The notes under the pieces were generated by a model, which was given only the letters and a program-made list of their open reading frames with translations, ran no database searches and had not been told where the DNA came from. The position numbers and the translations under genes were made by a program. From Candidatus Omnitrophota bacterium (lineage in GTDB: Bacteria > Omnitrophota > Gorgyraeia > Duberdicusellales > 4484-171): a stretch of 64,000 bases of DNA. Numbering within the stretch: position 1 is the first letter of the stretch; each line of letters begins with the position of its first letter. Shown piece after piece: positions 2,577 through 9,296 of the stretch. Location of the stretch: assembly GCA_018826075.1 (NCBI GenBank), contig JAHKAJ010000025.1:37608-101607 (forward strand), written 5' to 3'.

Positions 2577-4121
2577 CTAAAGCCTTAAAATTTGGGCCCA
2601 ATAGGCTTTGAGGGGATTTTCGAAAATCACCTGCCAACGGGAAACCAAAGGCAGTTTTATTAATTTGGCCGGTTTTAATAGCTTTTTTTGGCTAAAATCA
2701 TGATATTCTGAAAGGCTGAGGCTTTGAATAAATACTTTATGCTTCTTTCCCTTTAAAACAAACCCTTGAGGGATGACTTTGAGTTCATACCCATTTACCT
2801 GTAAAAAGAAAGCTAAACTGTAGGTGTTGACTGAAAGTAAATAGTTTTCCGGAACTGCTTCTTTAAGGCCGACAATTACAAAATCTGATTCAGAGTTTGA
2901 AACTAGTTCAGCTAACCCTTGGGAAAAAGCCAAAGCATCCTGCCAATAAGGCTTTTGGTTGGAGCTGCTCACCTGCTGATAGCCCTTCCAGTAGGCGCCA
3001 AAAAATCTTGGGCCGTCATGAGTATGGGCATAAGCCGGGTTTCTGGTAATCCGTAGATAAGGAAACTTACCTTCCGGTTCAAGTGAAAAAAATTGAACTA
3101 AGATACTAAAAATAACCACAGCATAGGCCGATCTTTTAAAATTGAGTTTTAATCTTTTAGCTAACGGCCTCTGGCTAAAATCTAAAATCGCCGCCAACAA
3201 GACAAACGGCCCCAGGCAAATAGCGGCAAGCAAATGATGCCCGGATACCAGCCGGCCGAAAACCGGATAAAATAATATACCGGCTGGAATAATCACCAGC
3301 AGGCGCTTAAAGTCCTTTTTGGCTAAAGATTCTCCAAAGTAAACACAAGCGTATATACTTAAAAAAAACCAAACCGCTATGTTGGTGGCAGTAAACAAAA
3401 TATTCAAAGAATTAATCTGGCTCTCAGCCAAAGACCCGTTCAGTAAAAGATGGGATTTGTAATATGCTAGAATTTGCAGTGGTTTAAAAATTCCCGAAAA
3501 AATCGCCGCGGCCAAAATAAAAAAACTTCCTAAAGAAAAAGCAATTATCGAACGCCGGGAACGAGCTTTAAAAATTATAATAAAAAAAAGGGCCGGGATA
3601 CCCAGCAAAAAATCAAACCTGAAAAAACAGGCTAAAACAGCTAAGCTTCCGGCAAGGAAATATTTAGTATTCTTGCTGGAAACTATAGCTTGAGGTGAAT
3701 TTTTCCAAAACAAAATTAGTACTGCCAAGGAAAAAATAACCATGCCAAAAACGCTGGAATTAGGGTAAAGCAAACGGAAGAAGATCTCAGGAAACAATAA
3801 CAAAAAACAGAAACTAAAAAACAAATTTATTCTTCTGTTTGAGGCTTGATAAACCGAAAAGGTAAGCAAACATACTGCCAAGGCTCCCAATAAAGCCGGC
3901 AACAGATATAAAAAATACGGCAGGCCGCTAATCCGATAAACTAAATAGTTGACTTCGTAGGCCAGGGGCTGGTAATAGTAGCTATAAAGGAAAAACTCCC
4001 CAGCCTTGGCTTGAGCGAGATTGACTGAACCGGCCAAGATAGCTACCCCGTCAGGCTCATACCAGCCCCGGTCGCCAAAGGAAATCCCCCAAACTGCCAA
4101 AAGGCAATAAAGCAAGACCAA
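2577..4121 (-). CDS. polytopic membrane protein, GT-C/PMT-like glycosyltransferase candidate
   Basis: More than 10 predicted TM helices and Tyr/Phe-rich loops. The general architecture resembles ArnT/PMT-type glycosyltransferases, but no definitive motif was found. Confidence 0.35.
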   Translation of the reverse strand: MVLLYCLLAVWGISFGDRGWYEPDGVAILAGSVNLAQAKAGEFFLYSYYYQPLAYEVNYLVYRISGLPYFLYLLPALLGALAVCLLTFSVYQASNRRINLFFSFCFLLLFPEIFFRLLYPNSSVFGMVIFSLAVLILFWKNSPQAIVSSKNTKYFLAGSLAVLACFFRFDFLLGIPALFFIIIFKARSRRSIIAFSLGSFFILAAAIFSGIFKPLQILAYYKSHLLLNGSLAESQINSLNILFTATNIAVWFFLSIYACVYFGESLAKKDFKRLLVIIPAGILFYPVFGRLVSGHHLLAAICLGPFVLLAAILDFSQRPLAKRLKLNFKRSAYAVVIFSILVQFFSLEPEGKFPYLRITRNPAYAHTHDGPRFFGAYWKGYQQVSSSNQKPYWQDALAFSQGLAELVSNSESDFVIVGLKEAVPENYLLSVNTYSLAFFLQVNGYELKVIPQGFVLKGKKHKVFIQSLSLSEYHDFSQKKLLKPAKLIKLPLVSRWQVIFENPLKAYWAQILRL

Positions 4122-4171
4122 CCCGATCAGGGGATTCTTGAAAATTTTTAAGATTTGAAAAAAATAATTAC

Positions 4172-4618
4172 TTATTCTGATTGCTTATACACCCTGTCAT
4201 TCTCATGAACCGGCTTGATCACCTTAATACCTATTTCAAGACCCTTCTTGGCAGTAGAAATAGATTCATGCTCATATTGCATAGATTGAATGCTTTGGCT
4301 AAAATCATCATGAGCACCTTTTATATGGATCTTGTCTCCAACTTTCAAGGCAGTTTTAACCTTGATTATCCCTACCTGGATCTTTCCGAAGTAGTGAGTA
4401 ACAATACCAACTTCCCTCTCCTTGAGCTTAGCCGGAACAATCTTTACCGGCCGGGATTTCTTTTTTACTGATTTGATCTTTTTGCTAACTTTTTTGGCCG
4501 GCTTGGTTTTAGATTTTTTAACGGTTTTCTTTGCCGGTTTGGCCTTAGTTTTTTTAACCTTCGGCTTTTTAGAACTTTTACGATTTACTGACTTTTTCCA
4601 AAGCTTTACCAACGTCAT
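4172..4618 (-). CDS. lysine-rich (histone H1-like) N-terminus fused to an EF-Tu domain-2-like beta-barrel; hypothetical
   Basis: Residues 10-60 are a K/P/A-rich repeat (KKPKVKKTKAKPAKK...). The C-terminal GIVTHYFGKIQVGIIKVKTALKVGDKIHIKG...GLEIGIKV resembles the translation-factor beta-barrel pattern. Confidence 0.35.
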   Translation of the reverse strand: MTLVKLWKKSVNRKSSKKPKVKKTKAKPAKKTVKKSKTKPAKKVSKKIKSVKKKSRPVKIVPAKLKEREVGIVTHYFGKIQVGIIKVKTALKVGDKIHIKGAHDDFSQSIQSMQYEHESISTAKKGLEIGIKVIKPVHENDRVYKQSE

Positions 4619-4662
4619 TTTTCACCTCCCTTTTCCTTGGCATCATATCATAGAAAAAACAA

Positions 4663-4739
4663 TGGGGTGGGTGACGAGATTTGAACTCGCGACCACTTGA
4701 GCCACAGTCAAGTGCTCTGCCAACTGAGCTACACCCACC
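4663..4739 (-). tRNA. tRNA-His (GTG)
   Basis: The reverse complement folds as a cloverleaf: GGTGGGTG/TAGCTCAGTTGGCAGAGC/CTTGA-CTGTGGC-TCAAG/.../CACCCACC-CCA. The anticodon loop is CTGTGGC (GTG), with an extra 5' G typical of tRNA-His and an encoded CCA. Confidence 0.85.
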
Positions 4740-4749
4740 AAAAAAAGTA

Positions 4750-5052
4750 TTATTTAGGGTTATTCCTTATTTTTTGGTGGCACCGAGGCTGTAAAGCCGA
4801 GGTGCCTCTATTTATCAACTGAATCTTTTTATCTTTGCTCCAACCTTTGATCTCTGCTTCTCTTTTAAGAACCTCTGATTTAGATAAAAATTCCTCACTA
4901 TATTTTAGCTCTACCGGCCTCCTAAATTTAGTAAACCGGCAACCTTGACCCCGATTGTGTTGTTTAATCCTGTTATCTAAATTATTAGTAATACCTGTAT
5001 ATAACTTTTGATCCTTACACTTGATTATATACAAGTACCACCTTTTGTCCAT
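4750..5052 (-). CDS. GIY-YIG nuclease family protein
   Basis: YLYIIKCKDQKLYTGITNNLDNRIKQHN matches the GIY...YIG motif plus the conserved R/E. 100 aa. It lies between direct repeats of the tRNA-His 5' end. Confidence 0.75.
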   Translation of the reverse strand: MDKRWYLYIIKCKDQKLYTGITNNLDNRIKQHNRGQGCRFTKFRRPVELKYSEEFLSKSEVLKREAEIKGWSKDKKIQLINRGTSALQPRCHQKIRNNPK

Positions 5053-5172
5053 TTTCTAGATCCTTCGCCTTCGGCTCAGGATTAATTCAACTATGTACTT
5101 TTGCAAGTTCGAAAAACGCAGCAAAAGTACAAGTTTCATTAAGCTACACCCACCAAAAAAGCATTATCTATC

Positions 5173-6447
5173 TTAATTTTGCGATTCCGCAGGTTGTTGT
5201 TCTGATGTTTCTTTATTTTTTTTGGGGACAAAGATGCTTTTCAGGGTATCGACTATTTCTTCCCCGCTTTTCTTAAAAACATCAATGGTCTCATCTAGGG
5301 TGAGTTCCTTCCCCTCTTTAAGCTTGTCTCCAATATTTTCCTTAAGGTTATCGGCAACCCCCTGGACCATCAATGAACCAAAAGGAACAACTTCTTTAAG
5401 GCTATCCTTTATTGAAGTTAAGTTTAAATTAGGAGAATCCATTTTAGTCTTAATCACAAAATTAAACACCGGTTTGTCTCCGGGGCCTTTCAAGAAAGAA
5501 AGAATGGTCCGTAAAGTCTTAGTCCGGGAACTCTCCTCCTGACCCTCGGGAACTTCCAGATATTCTATATTTTCTAAAACTAAAGAACTTTCTATGGCCA
5601 GCTCATTTTCCTTAGAGTTAAAATTGCTGTTTAAAGAAAGGCTGGCCTGTTTAATCCCCCAACTCTCCGGCTTCCAAAATGCCGGCCAATAGGAACTAAA
5701 AGCATTGTATCTGATATCCTCCAGACTGACATCCAGATCCATATTTTTATGATAATAATCTACCCAGCCGTTGGCAGACATACTTTCTATAGCGCTGGTT
5801 TCTCCGACCGTAGCAAAACCTTTAGCTTTCAGATAAAATTTTTCCGGATCAGGAAAAGAAAAATTCGTCAACTTTATGTCGACATCTTTGATGATTATTG
5901 GTTTTGCTTCCCGGTTGGTTTTATCTTCAAACTCTATCCGGCTGTTGATCACCCGGATATCTTTTATGGTAACCGGGATTATCTTGACTATCTCGGGTTC
6001 ACCAGCCTCTGCGGCTTTTTTGGAAACAAAATTAGTGGCCGGGCCAGAAGTTGGTTGATTCTCAGATAACTTTTCCTCTAAGCTTCCTTGAGGTTTTCCT
6101 TTTTCAAAAAAAGGCAAAACATGTAAACCTCTCCGGTCGTTTACGATGTTAATTTTCAGGCCGTCAACAATAAGTTTAGCTACAGCTAAACGCCTAAAAG
6201 GATTAAACAAATCTAAGTAAGCATTGGCTTTATCAAACGAGATATCAGCACACTCAAAACCTTTTAACTCTATAGCGAAAGGAAAACTTACCCGTAGCGA
6301 TTCAATTTCTACTTCCTGGCCAAAATTTTTCTCTAAGTTAGCGATTATTATCTCTCTCCCCTTTAGGTTAAGAAAGATAAAAAGAGCTGCATGAAATAAA
6401 ATTATTGCAACTACCAATAAACCCAGAGCAATCAATAATTTTTTCAT
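5173..6447 (-). CDS. membrane-anchored hypothetical protein (AsmA-like architecture)
   Basis: N-terminal TM helix followed by a long beta-rich periplasmic region. The family assignment is tentative. Confidence 0.3.
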   Translation of the reverse strand: MKKLLIALGLLVVAIILFHAALFIFLNLKGREIIIANLEKNFGQEVEIESLRVSFPFAIELKGFECADISFDKANAYLDLFNPFRRLAVAKLIVDGLKINIVNDRRGLHVLPFFEKGKPQGSLEEKLSENQPTSGPATNFVSKKAAEAGEPEIVKIIPVTIKDIRVINSRIEFEDKTNREAKPIIIKDVDIKLTNFSFPDPEKFYLKAKGFATVGETSAIESMSANGWVDYYHKNMDLDVSLEDIRYNAFSSYWPAFWKPESWGIKQASLSLNSNFNSKENELAIESSLVLENIEYLEVPEGQEESSRTKTLRTILSFLKGPGDKPVFNFVIKTKMDSPNLNLTSIKDSLKEVVPFGSLMVQGVADNLKENIGDKLKEGKELTLDETIDVFKKSGEEIVDTLKSIFVPKKNKETSEQQPAESQN

Positions 6448-6497
6448 TTCAGTATTTTTCTCCTTATTCTTCGTTTTTACGATTAAGATAAAACCAC

Positions 6498-6570
6498 GTG
6501 CCCGGCAGGAATCGAACCTGCAACCCTCGGCTTAGAAGGCCGATGCTCTATCCAATTGAGCTACGGGCAC
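6498..6570 (-). tRNA. tRNA-Arg (TCT)
   Basis: Reverse complement GTGCCCGTAGCTCAATTGGATAGAGCATCGGCCTTCTAAGCCGAGGGTTGCAGGTTCGATTCCTGCCGGGCACG. Anticodon loop CTTCTAA. Confidence 0.8.
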
Positions 6571-6574
6571 AATT

Positions 6575-6652
6575 TGGTCGGGGCGACAGGATTCGAACCT
6601 GTGACATCTTGGTCCCAAACCAAGCGCTCTAACCGGACTGAGCCACGCCCCG
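6575..6652 (-). tRNA. tRNA-Pro (TGG)
   Basis: Reverse complement CGGGGCGTGGCTCAGTCCGGTTAGAGCGCTTGGTTTGGGACCAAGATGTCACAGGTTCGAATCCTGTCGCCCCGACCA. Anticodon loop TTTGGGA. CCA is encoded. Confidence 0.8.
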
Positions 6653-6712
6653 AACACAAAGGTAAATTTATTATAACTGGTTTTCTTATAGTGTAAAGGC
6701 GGTTTTGCCTCT

Positions 6713-7492
6713 CTAAAGACAAGCCGAAACGATTTCGACTACCCTTTGGTGAATTTTTTTATTCGAAGCAATATAGCCTATATTTTTATAGGTTAAAGGC
6801 TTTCCTTTTAAATCAGTTAAGCTGCCGCCGGCTTCCTCGATCAGGCATACCCCTCCGGCAAAATCCCAGGGCCGGTCATGAAATTCAACTACAAAATCCA
6901 AAACCCCTTCAGCAACATAGGAAAGATGCCGGGCTGATGAGCCAAGCATCCGAACATTAAAAACTTCCCTGGCTAAATTTCCCAAAGCCGGCAGCATCTG
7001 TTCCGGTGAATAACGAATACTGGAATCAAAGGCGATCGAACAATCCTTTAAAACATCGTTGGCCGAAACAGAAATCTTTCTGCCGTTTTTATAAGCTCCC
7101 TGGCCTTTTTCAGCGCTATACAGCTCATCGTCTTTAGGCATATAGATTATTCCGGCAACAAAATCTTTCTGCTTATGCACCAGTCCGATAGAAACTCCAA
7201 AAATATCGATGTTACGGATAAAATTATGGGTACCGTCTAAAGGGTCAATAATCCAAATATATTCTTTATCTTGGCCACTTGAGCCGCTTTCTTCAGCGAG
7301 AATAGCATGATCGGGAAATCGGGCTTTGATTTTACTGATAATCATCGCTTCAGCTTCCCGGTCCAGATTAGTGGCGAAATCACGATCGCCTTTTTTCTTA
7401 ATCTGGCTTACTTTGCCGAAATTATCCCAGAGAAATTTTCCAGCAACTCTGGCAGCTTCAATACCGACATCAAGAATTTTGCTCACCCTCAC
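6713..7492 (-). CDS. suhB: inositol monophosphatase family protein
   Basis: WIIDPLDGTHNF and the WDxAAG-like region (WDFAGG) match IMPase family motifs. Confidence 0.8.
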   Translation of the reverse strand: MRVSKILDVGIEAARVAGKFLWDNFGKVSQIKKKGDRDFATNLDREAEAMIISKIKARFPDHAILAEESGSSGQDKEYIWIIDPLDGTHNFIRNIDIFGVSIGLVHKQKDFVAGIIYMPKDDELYSAEKGQGAYKNGRKISVSANDVLKDCSIAFDSSIRYSPEQMLPALGNLAREVFNVRMLGSSARHLSYVAEGVLDFVVEFHDRPWDFAGGVCLIEEAGGSLTDLKGKPLTYKNIGYIASNKKIHQRVVEIVSACL

Positions 7493-9021: not shown

Positions 9022-9104
9022 TGCGGAAGGGGGGACTTGAACCCCCATAGTATTGCTACCACTAGGTCCTGAACCTAGCGCGTCTGCCATTCCGCCACTT
9101 CCGC
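9022..9104 (-). tRNA. tRNA-Leu (CAG)
   Basis: Reverse complement GCGGAAGTGGCGGAATGGCAGACGCGCTAGGTTCAGGACCTAG + long variable arm + GGGGGTTCAAGTCCCCCCTTCCGCA. Anticodon loop TTCAGGA. Confidence 0.8.
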
Positions 9105-9296
9105 TCTACTTCGCTCTATAACTTGTAATTTATGGTAGAGCTTCGTAGAAGCTTTACCTTTTCCAGTAATTATTTCTGCGTAGCCCTACCGGCGCTTAAC
9201 TCCTAGAAGGGCGAAGCAGAACCGCCACTTCCGCGAATACAGGCTGCTTTAAAGCTGATTATACCAAAATAACTGCTTTTTAAGGAATTTTTTTCG

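Follow-up and report, generated by a model that had tools for sequence, protein, structure and literature searches.

A GIY-YIG nuclease cassette between two copies of the tRNA-His 5' end in Omnitrophota: a candidate homing-type selfish element

How does the front end of a tRNA gene come to stand twice on a bacterial chromosome, with a nuclease gene between its two copies? The question is raised by a 64,000-nucleotide stretch of DNA from a Candidatus Omnitrophota bacterium (contig JAHKAJ010000025.1; the window, in what follows, means the whole of this stretch as analysed), in which a small gene for a nuclease of the GIY-YIG family is bracketed by repeats of the 5' end of tRNA-His. The cassette so formed consists of a UPF0213-type nuclease gene, a structured leader made up of tandem-GA hairpins, an inverted 3' hairpin and its own copy of the first 11–13 bases of the tRNA. 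It is inserted relative to related genomes, it recurs, it is associated with tRNA genes, its structured ends are conserved and its decay products can be found. The reading preferred here, which is given about an even chance, is that the segment from about 4740 to 5141, together with one copy of the repeat, is a homing-type selfish cassette which sits within the tRNA 5' end and regenerates the end that it interrupts.

The duplicated tRNA-His end and its empty counterpart

The window carries an intact tRNA-His(GTG) gene with an encoded CCA on the minus strand (4663–4738, with an encoded G-1 at 4739), recognised by ARAGORN and by the Rfam tRNA model with 69.2 bits. Its 5' end forms part of an exact direct repeat of 19 nucleotides (nt), AGCTACACCCACCAAAAAA, the copies of which lie at 4727–4745 and 5142–5160. 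With up to two mismatches allowed, no other match to this repeat was found in the 64-kb window, and none of 100 shuffled sequences (0/100) gave two matches. The repeat can be extended to about 29 nt with two substitutions and one indel, each copy then comprising a -10-like box, a T-run and tRNA-His nt -1 to 12. The proximal copy (copy A, TAAATAATAC-T7-GGTGGGTGTAGCT; minus strand, 4756 to 4727) is contiguous with the remainder of tRNA-His, while the distal one (copy B, TAGATAATGC-T6-GGTGGGTGTAGCT; minus strand, 5170 to 5142) stands 18 nt past the stop codon of a DUF748 gene, which is the position of the tRNA-His 5' end in relatives with an empty site. A cassette of about 415 bp is in this way set into the front end of tRNA-His, bracketed by two copies of its first 13 bases. 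As the same arrangement is present on nine contigs independent of one another (from NCBI, ENA, JGI and Logan), it is no assembly artefact. The -10-like boxes were not called by a consensus promoter scan, so any promoter role for them is putative.

The repeat had been recognised in a first-pass annotation of this DNA, and it holds, with the correction that the proximal copy begins at 4727 and not at 4728. The nuclease open reading frame (ORF) had also been placed exactly between the repeats; it is indeed bracketed by them but, as its stop codon (4750–4752) lies in the flank part of the proximal copy, it is not strictly between them. The possibility that the repeat is a general promoter element is excluded by its uniqueness in the 64-kb window, and the further GIY-YIG paralogues for which a search had been suggested did not turn up there, the window having only one GIY-YIG gene. 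In two strains with an identical nuclease protein (L004, 4140–4175, and L006; window equivalent 5155–5172), the flank of the distal copy differs, GATAGCTGATAATTT vs GATAGATAATGCTTTTTT, and the 13 tRNA-derived bases of that copy are identical despite the difference in flank.

The comparison with empty sites was anchored on the conserved upstream neighbour of tRNA-His in Omnitrophota, a DUF748/YhdP-like gene (5173–6447, minus strand). The empty-site set is made up of the relatives with the most similar DUF748 protein whose tRNA-His locus was readable (L094, L096 and L097, with 46–47% identity to the window's protein), and was obtained by protein search and contig look-ups; a metagenome scan with the DUF748 protein yielded only three loci and no empty site. 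In these relatives, which share the order Mem_trans, SmpB, inositol phosphatase, tRNA-Pro/Arg, DUF748 and tRNA-His, about 21 nt separate the DUF748 stop codon from tRNA-His, and there is no cassette. The closest relative (L093, 67%) is uninformative on the empty site, because another gene follows DUF748 before the contig ends. In this comparison between species, the orthologous site is empty in L094, L096 and L097 and occupied in the window, in L101, L102 and in others. Judged from these sequences, the segment of about 415 bp is an insertion relative to the closest relatives with a readable tRNA-His locus, in line with what the first-pass annotation had suggested.

The nuclease and the structured ends of the cassette

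The nuclease ORF (4750–5052, minus strand) encodes a protein of 100 amino acids (aa) of the UPF0213/YhbQ type. It matches the Pfam GIY-YIG family (PF01541) with E=1.2e-20 and 74 bits (cut-off 22.6), aa 5–77 being aligned to positions 2–77 of the 78 in the profile, and the closest solved structures are the UPF0213 proteins PDB 1ZG2 (BH0048; E=8e-16) and 1YWL (EF2693; E=5e-12), which resemble the window protein in size and single-domain build and were deposited as hypothetical proteins. An alignment of 25 homologues left Y8, Y18, G20, R28, H32, N33 and E65 invariant, and catalytic roles are presumed for these residues by homology. The catalytic domain takes up 73 of the 100 aa; homologues have variable C-terminal tails, and the final 20 or so aa of the window protein, translated through the 3' hairpin, are probably incidental. 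No DNA-binding domain was found beside the nuclease domain in these 100 aa, the tail being variable read-through, and no match to the protein was obtained in NCBIfam (including its group I intron endonuclease model), PHROGs or PADLOC. The UPF0213/YhbQ-type family as a whole comprises 12,679 clusters at 50% identity, and nearly all of the best 150 of these 12,679 related clusters are of 80–150 aa.

Between copy B and the nuclease gene lies a structured leader (5053–5141, minus strand), which is composed of helix P1 (TAAT/ATTA), a tandem GA/GA loop, helix P2 and two hairpins. The long hairpin 1 (5094–5131, minus strand) has a perfect stem of 11 bp, formed by 5094–5104 and 5121–5131, where a 10-bp stem at 5095–5130 had at first been annotated; the hairpin is present and only its extent had to be corrected. 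Hairpin 2 (about 5060–5082, minus strand; ATCCT-GA-GCC GAA GGC-GA-AGGAT) has the form stem-GA-GC...GC-GA-stem (ATCCTGAGC...GCGAAGGAT) and pairs a Shine-Dalgarno-like AAGGA. For the RNA of the window leader a fold of -30.1 kcal/mol is predicted (z=-4.5), and compensatory changes affect 9 of the 32 predicted pairs in a set of five related leaders, with homologous ones in L101, L102, L106 and L016; P1, for instance, takes the forms GCAT/ATGC, GCGT/ACGC and ACAT/ATGT in place of the window's TAAT/ATTA. When the Rfam 15 models were run on the window region and eight related loci, the matches were confined to tRNAs and a single group I intron (in L035), with none to the leader or hairpins. Inspection by eye led to the rejection of CUGAG...CGAAG as a hammerhead-like motif, the window copy having preserved neither G8/A9 nor the GAAA core.

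At the opposite end of the cassette, the leader hairpin motif returns in inverted orientation as a predicted 3' hairpin (GGCACCTCGGCTTTACAGCCTCGGTGCC, followed by ACCA; 4779–4806, minus strand), equivalents of which are found in L101, L102, L105, L106, L107 and L092. Directly after this hairpin, CCACC and a few further bases form the perfect complement of the flank of tRNA-His together with its nt -1 to 4. The resulting junction inverted repeat (4735–4780, minus strand) joins CCACCAAAAAA (4780 to 4770) to its complement TTTTTTGGTGG (4745 to 4735), the latter being the tRNA-His flank and nt -1 to 4, with the arms 24 nt apart. Inverted repeats of this kind measure 9–14 bp and pair the cassette end with the first five tRNA bases. 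The flank arm covaries between species: the window has A6/T6 (11 bp), L101, L102 and L107 have ATT(T)/(A)AAT, L106 has ATGATGCAA/TTGCATCAT (14 bp), and L092 has AAAATT/AATTTT. Among the tRNAs of the non-redundant loci, a junction stem of at least 8 bp occurs at only 6 of 65, and all six (6/6) are cassette-associated; the empty-site tRNA-His genes have none. Hairpins downstream of tRNAs that include the CCA were considered as a mark of the cassette and dropped, being found also at control tRNAs (L097, the tRNA-Pro of L106 and the tRNA-Asp of L035). The 64 kb contain only one clean pair of the hairpin motif. In another locus (L024, 880–975), two tandem copies of GTCATCCTGAGCGACACTGAGCGAAGCGAAGTGGAGTCGAAGGATT stand about 220–270 nt upstream of a GIY-YIG gene that does not adjoin a tRNA; the hairpin motif is therefore tied to the gene family beyond tRNA loci.

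Recurrence in Omnitrophota and at other tRNAs

The closest homologues of the window protein (63–67% identity) occupy the same place in their genomes, with the order DUF748, GIY-YIG and tRNA-His in L101, L102, L016, L106 and L107, and the same arrangement with a response-regulator gene in between in L110. At the tRNA-His of L101, L102 and L016, GGTGGGTGTAGCT lies upstream of the leader, and the junction between copy B and leader, GTAGCT/T[AG][AC]ATGA (the slash marking the junction), is common to these loci and the window. Despite this conserved junction, the DUF748 proteins of those species are only 22–25% identical to that of the window, as against 66–67% for the adjacent GIY-YIG protein. In L102 the outermost copy reads GGTGGGTG, unlike the resident tRNA, GGTGGCTG...CAGCCACC, and the tRNA piece therefore looks like a part of the cassette. 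Both this outer copy and a G4.U69 wobble in the tRNA-His of L101 would fit the import of a 5' piece, or of a whole tRNA, from a donor, and the wobble may be what is expected from partial co-conversion. The repeat, then, looks element-borne.

Incomplete forms are found in the same lineage. A second cassette in L102 (2873–3090; also in L104), which lies between the ORF-bearing cassette and tRNA-His, has the leader, the 3' hairpin and the junction inverted repeat without any ORF, and resembles a non-autonomous derivative. L092 keeps a solo hairpin module only. In L101 two further hairpin remnants are stacked upstream, and a different GIY-YIG lineage is present downstream of tRNA-His. In L105 (2750–2940), a GIY-YIG ORF and two identical 3' hairpin modules are followed by the 5' half of tRNA-His only, from nt -1 to about 38, which ends after the anticodon loop, and ARAGORN detected no complete tRNA at this locus. 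Single modules are missing as well, namely copy B in L106, the leader in L107 and the 3' hairpin in L110.

For a wider survey, one genome per species was scanned with the family alignment, and the 80 best loci were kept as an unselected set. Within 250 nt of the nuclease ORF, these loci contain 20 tRNA or tmRNA genes, where 1.2 would be predicted from their remaining parts (Poisson p=6e-18). All of these genes save one (19/20) are co-oriented with the nuclease ORF (p=4e-5), which often ends 0–16 nt before the tRNA. In a rough tree, the tRNA-linked members are distributed over three clades: one from Omnitrophota on the 5' side of tRNA-His, another from Omnitrophota located 3' of the tRNA, and a third from the Candidate Phyla Radiation and Margulisiibacteriota, mostly downstream of tRNA-Gln. 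The members from Proteobacteria, planctomycetes and Nitrospira in this tree have no tRNA link.

The bracketed design itself recurs at tRNAs other than tRNA-His. On a Saccharibacteria chromosome (L041), a GIY-YIG ORF of 78 aa lies within an exact repeat of 33 nt (a 21-nt flank plus tRNA-Gln nt 1–12), the distal copy of which runs on to nt 20, past a GC-rich palindromic hairpin of 36 nt inserted at nt 12/13; at this locus (3427–4252), GIY-YIG genes of two different subfamilies stand one on each side of tRNA-Gln. Ca. Velamenicoccus archaeovorus (L106) has two GIY-YIG ORFs, of which one stops 4 nt short of tRNA-Pro and has a copy of tRNA-Pro nt 1–11 ahead of it, and the other precedes tRNA-His. 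A version at the 3' end exists in L010, where a GIY-YIG ORF lies between two copies of a 20-nt stretch of the tRNA-Tyr 3' end. Depending on the instance, the duplicated tRNA piece measures 11, 13, 14, 26–29 or 33–41 nt, a variable length which disfavours a fixed staggered cut. A simple target-site duplication, as envisaged in the first-pass annotation, is not borne out, given this range of 11–41 nt between instances and the fact that most tRNA-His cassettes repeat only the 13 tRNA bases and not the flank.

Short inserts without an ORF are frequent between repeated tRNA ends in these loci, and several of them carry the hairpin motif. One such insert is found in the window (9105–9234, minus strand), where the first 13 nt of tRNA-Leu(CAG) (gene 9022–9104), GCGGAAGTGGCGG, are repeated at 9222–9234; the insert is 117 nt long, ORF-less and hairpin-rich, a TATAAT box is found only upstream of the distal copy, and L093 has the tRNA-Leu without the 117-nt insert. 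In L033 (3700–3915 and 7710–7803), the first 14 and the last 17 nt of tRNA-Glu are repeated nearby, with inserts of 63 and 48 nt, and the first 13 nt of tRNA-Gln are repeated around an insert of 68 nt. ORF-less inserts with repeated ends occur at both ends of the tRNA-Arg of L016, a remnant of this kind with a repeated tRNA end at the tRNA-Pro of L010, and a further insert with a repeated tRNA end at the tRNA-Ser of L025.

Other arrangements of tRNAs and family members were also recorded. A member with 59% identity to the window protein lies 7 nt downstream of tRNA-Gln in L108 (1922–2249), between spoVG and a glmU-like gene, and tRNA-Gln followed by GIY-YIG is seen also in six loci from several phyla (L011, L013, L041, L047, L081 and L082). 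In L035 (3564–3834), a group I intron (Rfam 72.5 bits) stands upstream of a GIY-YIG gene, apparently within a tRNA-like gene the 3' exon of which ends in ...GCGCAACCA, and the nuclease gene ends 3 nt before tRNA-Met. For the window, a group I intron with a GIY-YIG ORF was considered and rejected, as there is no Rfam Intron_gpI match in 4000–7000 at E<=1 and tRNA-His is uninterrupted. The gene downstream of tRNA-His in the window (4172–4618, minus strand) codes for 148 aa. The N-terminal half of its product is rich in lysine, the C-terminal domain of peptidase U32 is matched weakly and below threshold, and an imperfect tandem repeat of 33 nt (4490–4558) lies within the N-terminal coding region. 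In one strain with an identical cassette (L001, 8628–10290), this gene is replaced by an element lying directly after the tRNA-His 3' end, which has 88-nt perfect terminal inverted repeats and a large serine recombinase gene (Resolvase, Recombinase and Zn_ribbon domains).

Homing and its alternatives

Under the homing reading, both the mobility of the cassette and the specificity of its nuclease are inferred. The nuclease would cut a cassette-free tRNA gene in the D-arm region, at about nt 12/13, and the break would be repaired from a cassette-bearing copy, with the tRNA body acting as the right homology arm and copy B as the left landing pad. Copying would thereby bring in the cassette along with a new tRNA 5' end, regenerating an intact tRNA-His and leaving a 13-nt relic upstream, an anatomy which is the one seen in the window. 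Given the co-orientation and the gaps of 0–16 nt, the nuclease mRNA may ride on the tRNA transcription unit and be freed from it by tRNA processing. Decay of the ORF would give rise to ORF-less hairpin modules such as the remnants described, and recombination between the repeats could restore an empty site of the kind that the relatives have. A decaying ORF, stacked copies and empty sites are all in keeping with the life cycle usual for homing endonuclease genes. Moreover, with its design turning up again at further tRNAs and in further phyla, the cassette looks like an undescribed type of selfish element and not a one-off. A variant in which repair is templated on the mature tRNA was not adopted. 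Some repeats have nt 1 as their exact start, and in the L010 tRNA-Pro the inner copy is followed by a CCA, both of which hinted at this variant; but other instances, namely L016, the window and L041, repeat genomic flank.

Several points weigh against homing. All nine near-identical contigs carry the cassette, and no movement was observed. The regenerated tRNA would recreate any target inside the tRNA, which leaves self-immunity unexplained, and the protein is a catalytic domain only, without the DNA-binding domain that gives I-TevI/Seg enzymes their site specificity. Most of the wider family (in Proteobacteria, Planctomycetota and Nitrospirota) does not adjoin tRNAs. That GIY-YIG is better conserved than DUF748 may simply be due to the constraint acting on a small enzyme domain, as opposed to a fast-evolving membrane protein, and the linkage across very divergent Omnitrophota (L101, L102, L106, L107, L110 and L016) is equally compatible with old vertical inheritance and loss in one clade.

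It is the deep conservation of this DUF748, GIY-YIG and tRNA-His linkage, kept in six or more divergent Omnitrophota, that keeps the main rival alive, according to which the tRNA operon carries the nuclease gene as a resident passenger. An ancestral UPF0213 gene would have been fixed between DUF748 and tRNA-His, where it would be co-transcribed and not currently mobile, the repeats and ORF-less copies being products of local tandem duplication and deletion, and the hairpins serving RNA processing or translation control. The covarying leader helices, together with the sequestration of the Shine-Dalgarno-like AAGGA by hairpin 2, speak in its favour, as do the modules absent from L106, L107 and L110 and the resemblance of L102 to a tandem duplication. 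Nevertheless, a passenger gene is considered rather unlikely. It leaves unexplained the same bracketed design at the Saccharibacteria tRNA-Gln, the Velamenicoccus tRNA-Pro and the 3' end of the L010 tRNA-Tyr, the ORF-less inserts that lie between repeated tRNA ends at further tRNAs, the outer L102 copy that differs from the resident tRNA, and the presence of the hairpin motif in both orientations, which a one-strand RNA signal does not need.

An ORF flanked by inverted copies of one hairpin motif, the existence of ORF-less derivatives and direct target repeats that include host-specific flank in the window and L041 would also be accommodated by a transposon-like element, following the logic of insertion sequences or miniature inverted-repeat transposable elements, in which the GIY-YIG protein would act on the inverted hairpin ends and insert in tRNA D-arms, with staggered cuts duplicating the target. 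This explanation is judged improbable. The GIY-YIG domain is the only ORF between the repeats and no known transposase fold is present (the DDE, HUH, Ser and Tyr types were considered), the duplication is not of fixed length (11, 13, 26–29 or 33–41 nt), and two features, the conservation of the junction between copy B and leader and the outer copy of L102 that is not the resident one, argue that the repeat travels with the element. In addition, the 64 kb examined hold only one copy. The ends themselves point both ways: inverted copies of one hairpin motif flank the ORF and ORF-less copies exist, yet the hairpins are subterminal, unlike terminal inverted repeats of the classical kind, and copies are few. 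An origin as what is left of an integrase-mediated island, with tRNA-His as the attachment site and the repeats as attL and attR, had been put forward in the first-pass annotation and found no support; it is the least probable of the explanations. Although tRNA-His is a hot spot for integration, as seen from the serine recombinase element at its 3' end in L001, there is no integrase or fragment of one between the repeats, and it is the 5' end and promoter region that are repeated, whereas it is the 3' part that integrases directed at tRNAs duplicate. Every instance has the same small ORF as its sole cargo, and among 110 loci there was no larger insert with an integrase between the same repeats. 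Both the classical transposon and the integrase remnant fit poorly.

The nearest documented case of a GIY-YIG gene embedded among tRNA genes is SegB of phage T4, an enzyme that carries a separate DNA-binding region. SegB is a free-standing GIY-YIG homing endonuclease encoded in the T4 tRNA gene cluster; it targets the conserved T-psi-C motif, with a recognition site that spans 27 bp, and spreads by break repair, co-converting neighbouring tRNA genes (PMC2330249). However, SegB is a phage protein encoded between tRNA genes, without tRNA-end duplication, hairpin ends or ORF-less derivatives, whereas the window cassette has a 100-aa nuclease of the UPF0213 type, consisting of the catalytic domain only, and belongs to bacterial chromosomes. 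In mitochondria, free-standing homing endonuclease ORFs bring with them a replacement gene end, as in the case of the GIY-YIG ORF in Allomyces atp6 and the LAGLIDADG ORFs in Ophiostoma rps3. These likewise insert in an essential gene, keep it intact by means of the carried terminus and leave the displaced terminus as a short direct repeat, but they are found in organelle protein-coding genes and at the 3' end, whereas here bacterial tRNA 5' (in some cases 3') ends are concerned and the repeat is of only 11–41 nt.

REP/RAYT systems offer a different likeness, a single small nuclease-type gene between inverted palindromic motifs with gene-less copies of the motif elsewhere. RAYTs are nevertheless Y1 (HUH) transposases and not GIY-YIG enzymes, and REPs number tens to hundreds per genome with no known tie to tRNA genes, whereas the cassette has one clean motif pair in 64 kb. 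tRNA-targeting integrative elements share with it the direct repeats of a tRNA part and the regenerated intact tRNA; they differ in needing an integrase, in usually repeating the 3' part of the tRNA and in carrying kilobases of cargo, none of which applies to the cassette. What sets the cassette apart from these known systems is its domain-only nuclease, the targeting of 5' ends of bacterial chromosomal tRNAs, the junction inverted repeat and the tandem-GA hairpin leader. In a full-text search of the literature, no description of this cassette arrangement was found, nor was any paper on the genomic context or mobility of YhbQ/UPF0213 GIY-YIG proteins.

A more general proposal can be advanced with less confidence than the reading of the window cassette itself, being tentative and on balance doubtful: that some UPF0213/YhbQ clades power undescribed selfish elements which home into the D-arm (or T-arm) of tRNA genes, recognise DNA structure instead of a long sequence, regenerate the tRNA end from the copy that they carry, and leave behind ORF-less modules and micro-duplications of tRNA ends. 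The hosts of such elements may be Omnitrophota, the Candidate Phyla Radiation and related small-genome lineages, and the structures recognised may be tandem-GA hairpins or cruciforms together with the junction inverted repeat. The UPF0213/YhbQ-type family is huge and has no agreed function, and it would gain a role if some of its clades were tRNA-homing selfish elements. In that case, the short duplications of tRNA ends that lie scattered in genomes of Omnitrophota and the Candidate Phyla Radiation would be explained, and phage SegB and the mitochondrial elements that replace gene ends would have a bacterial chromosomal counterpart. Practical interest would also attach to a nuclease of about 80 aa guided to its site by the structure of DNA or RNA, and to a covarying leader RNA that is as yet uncatalogued.

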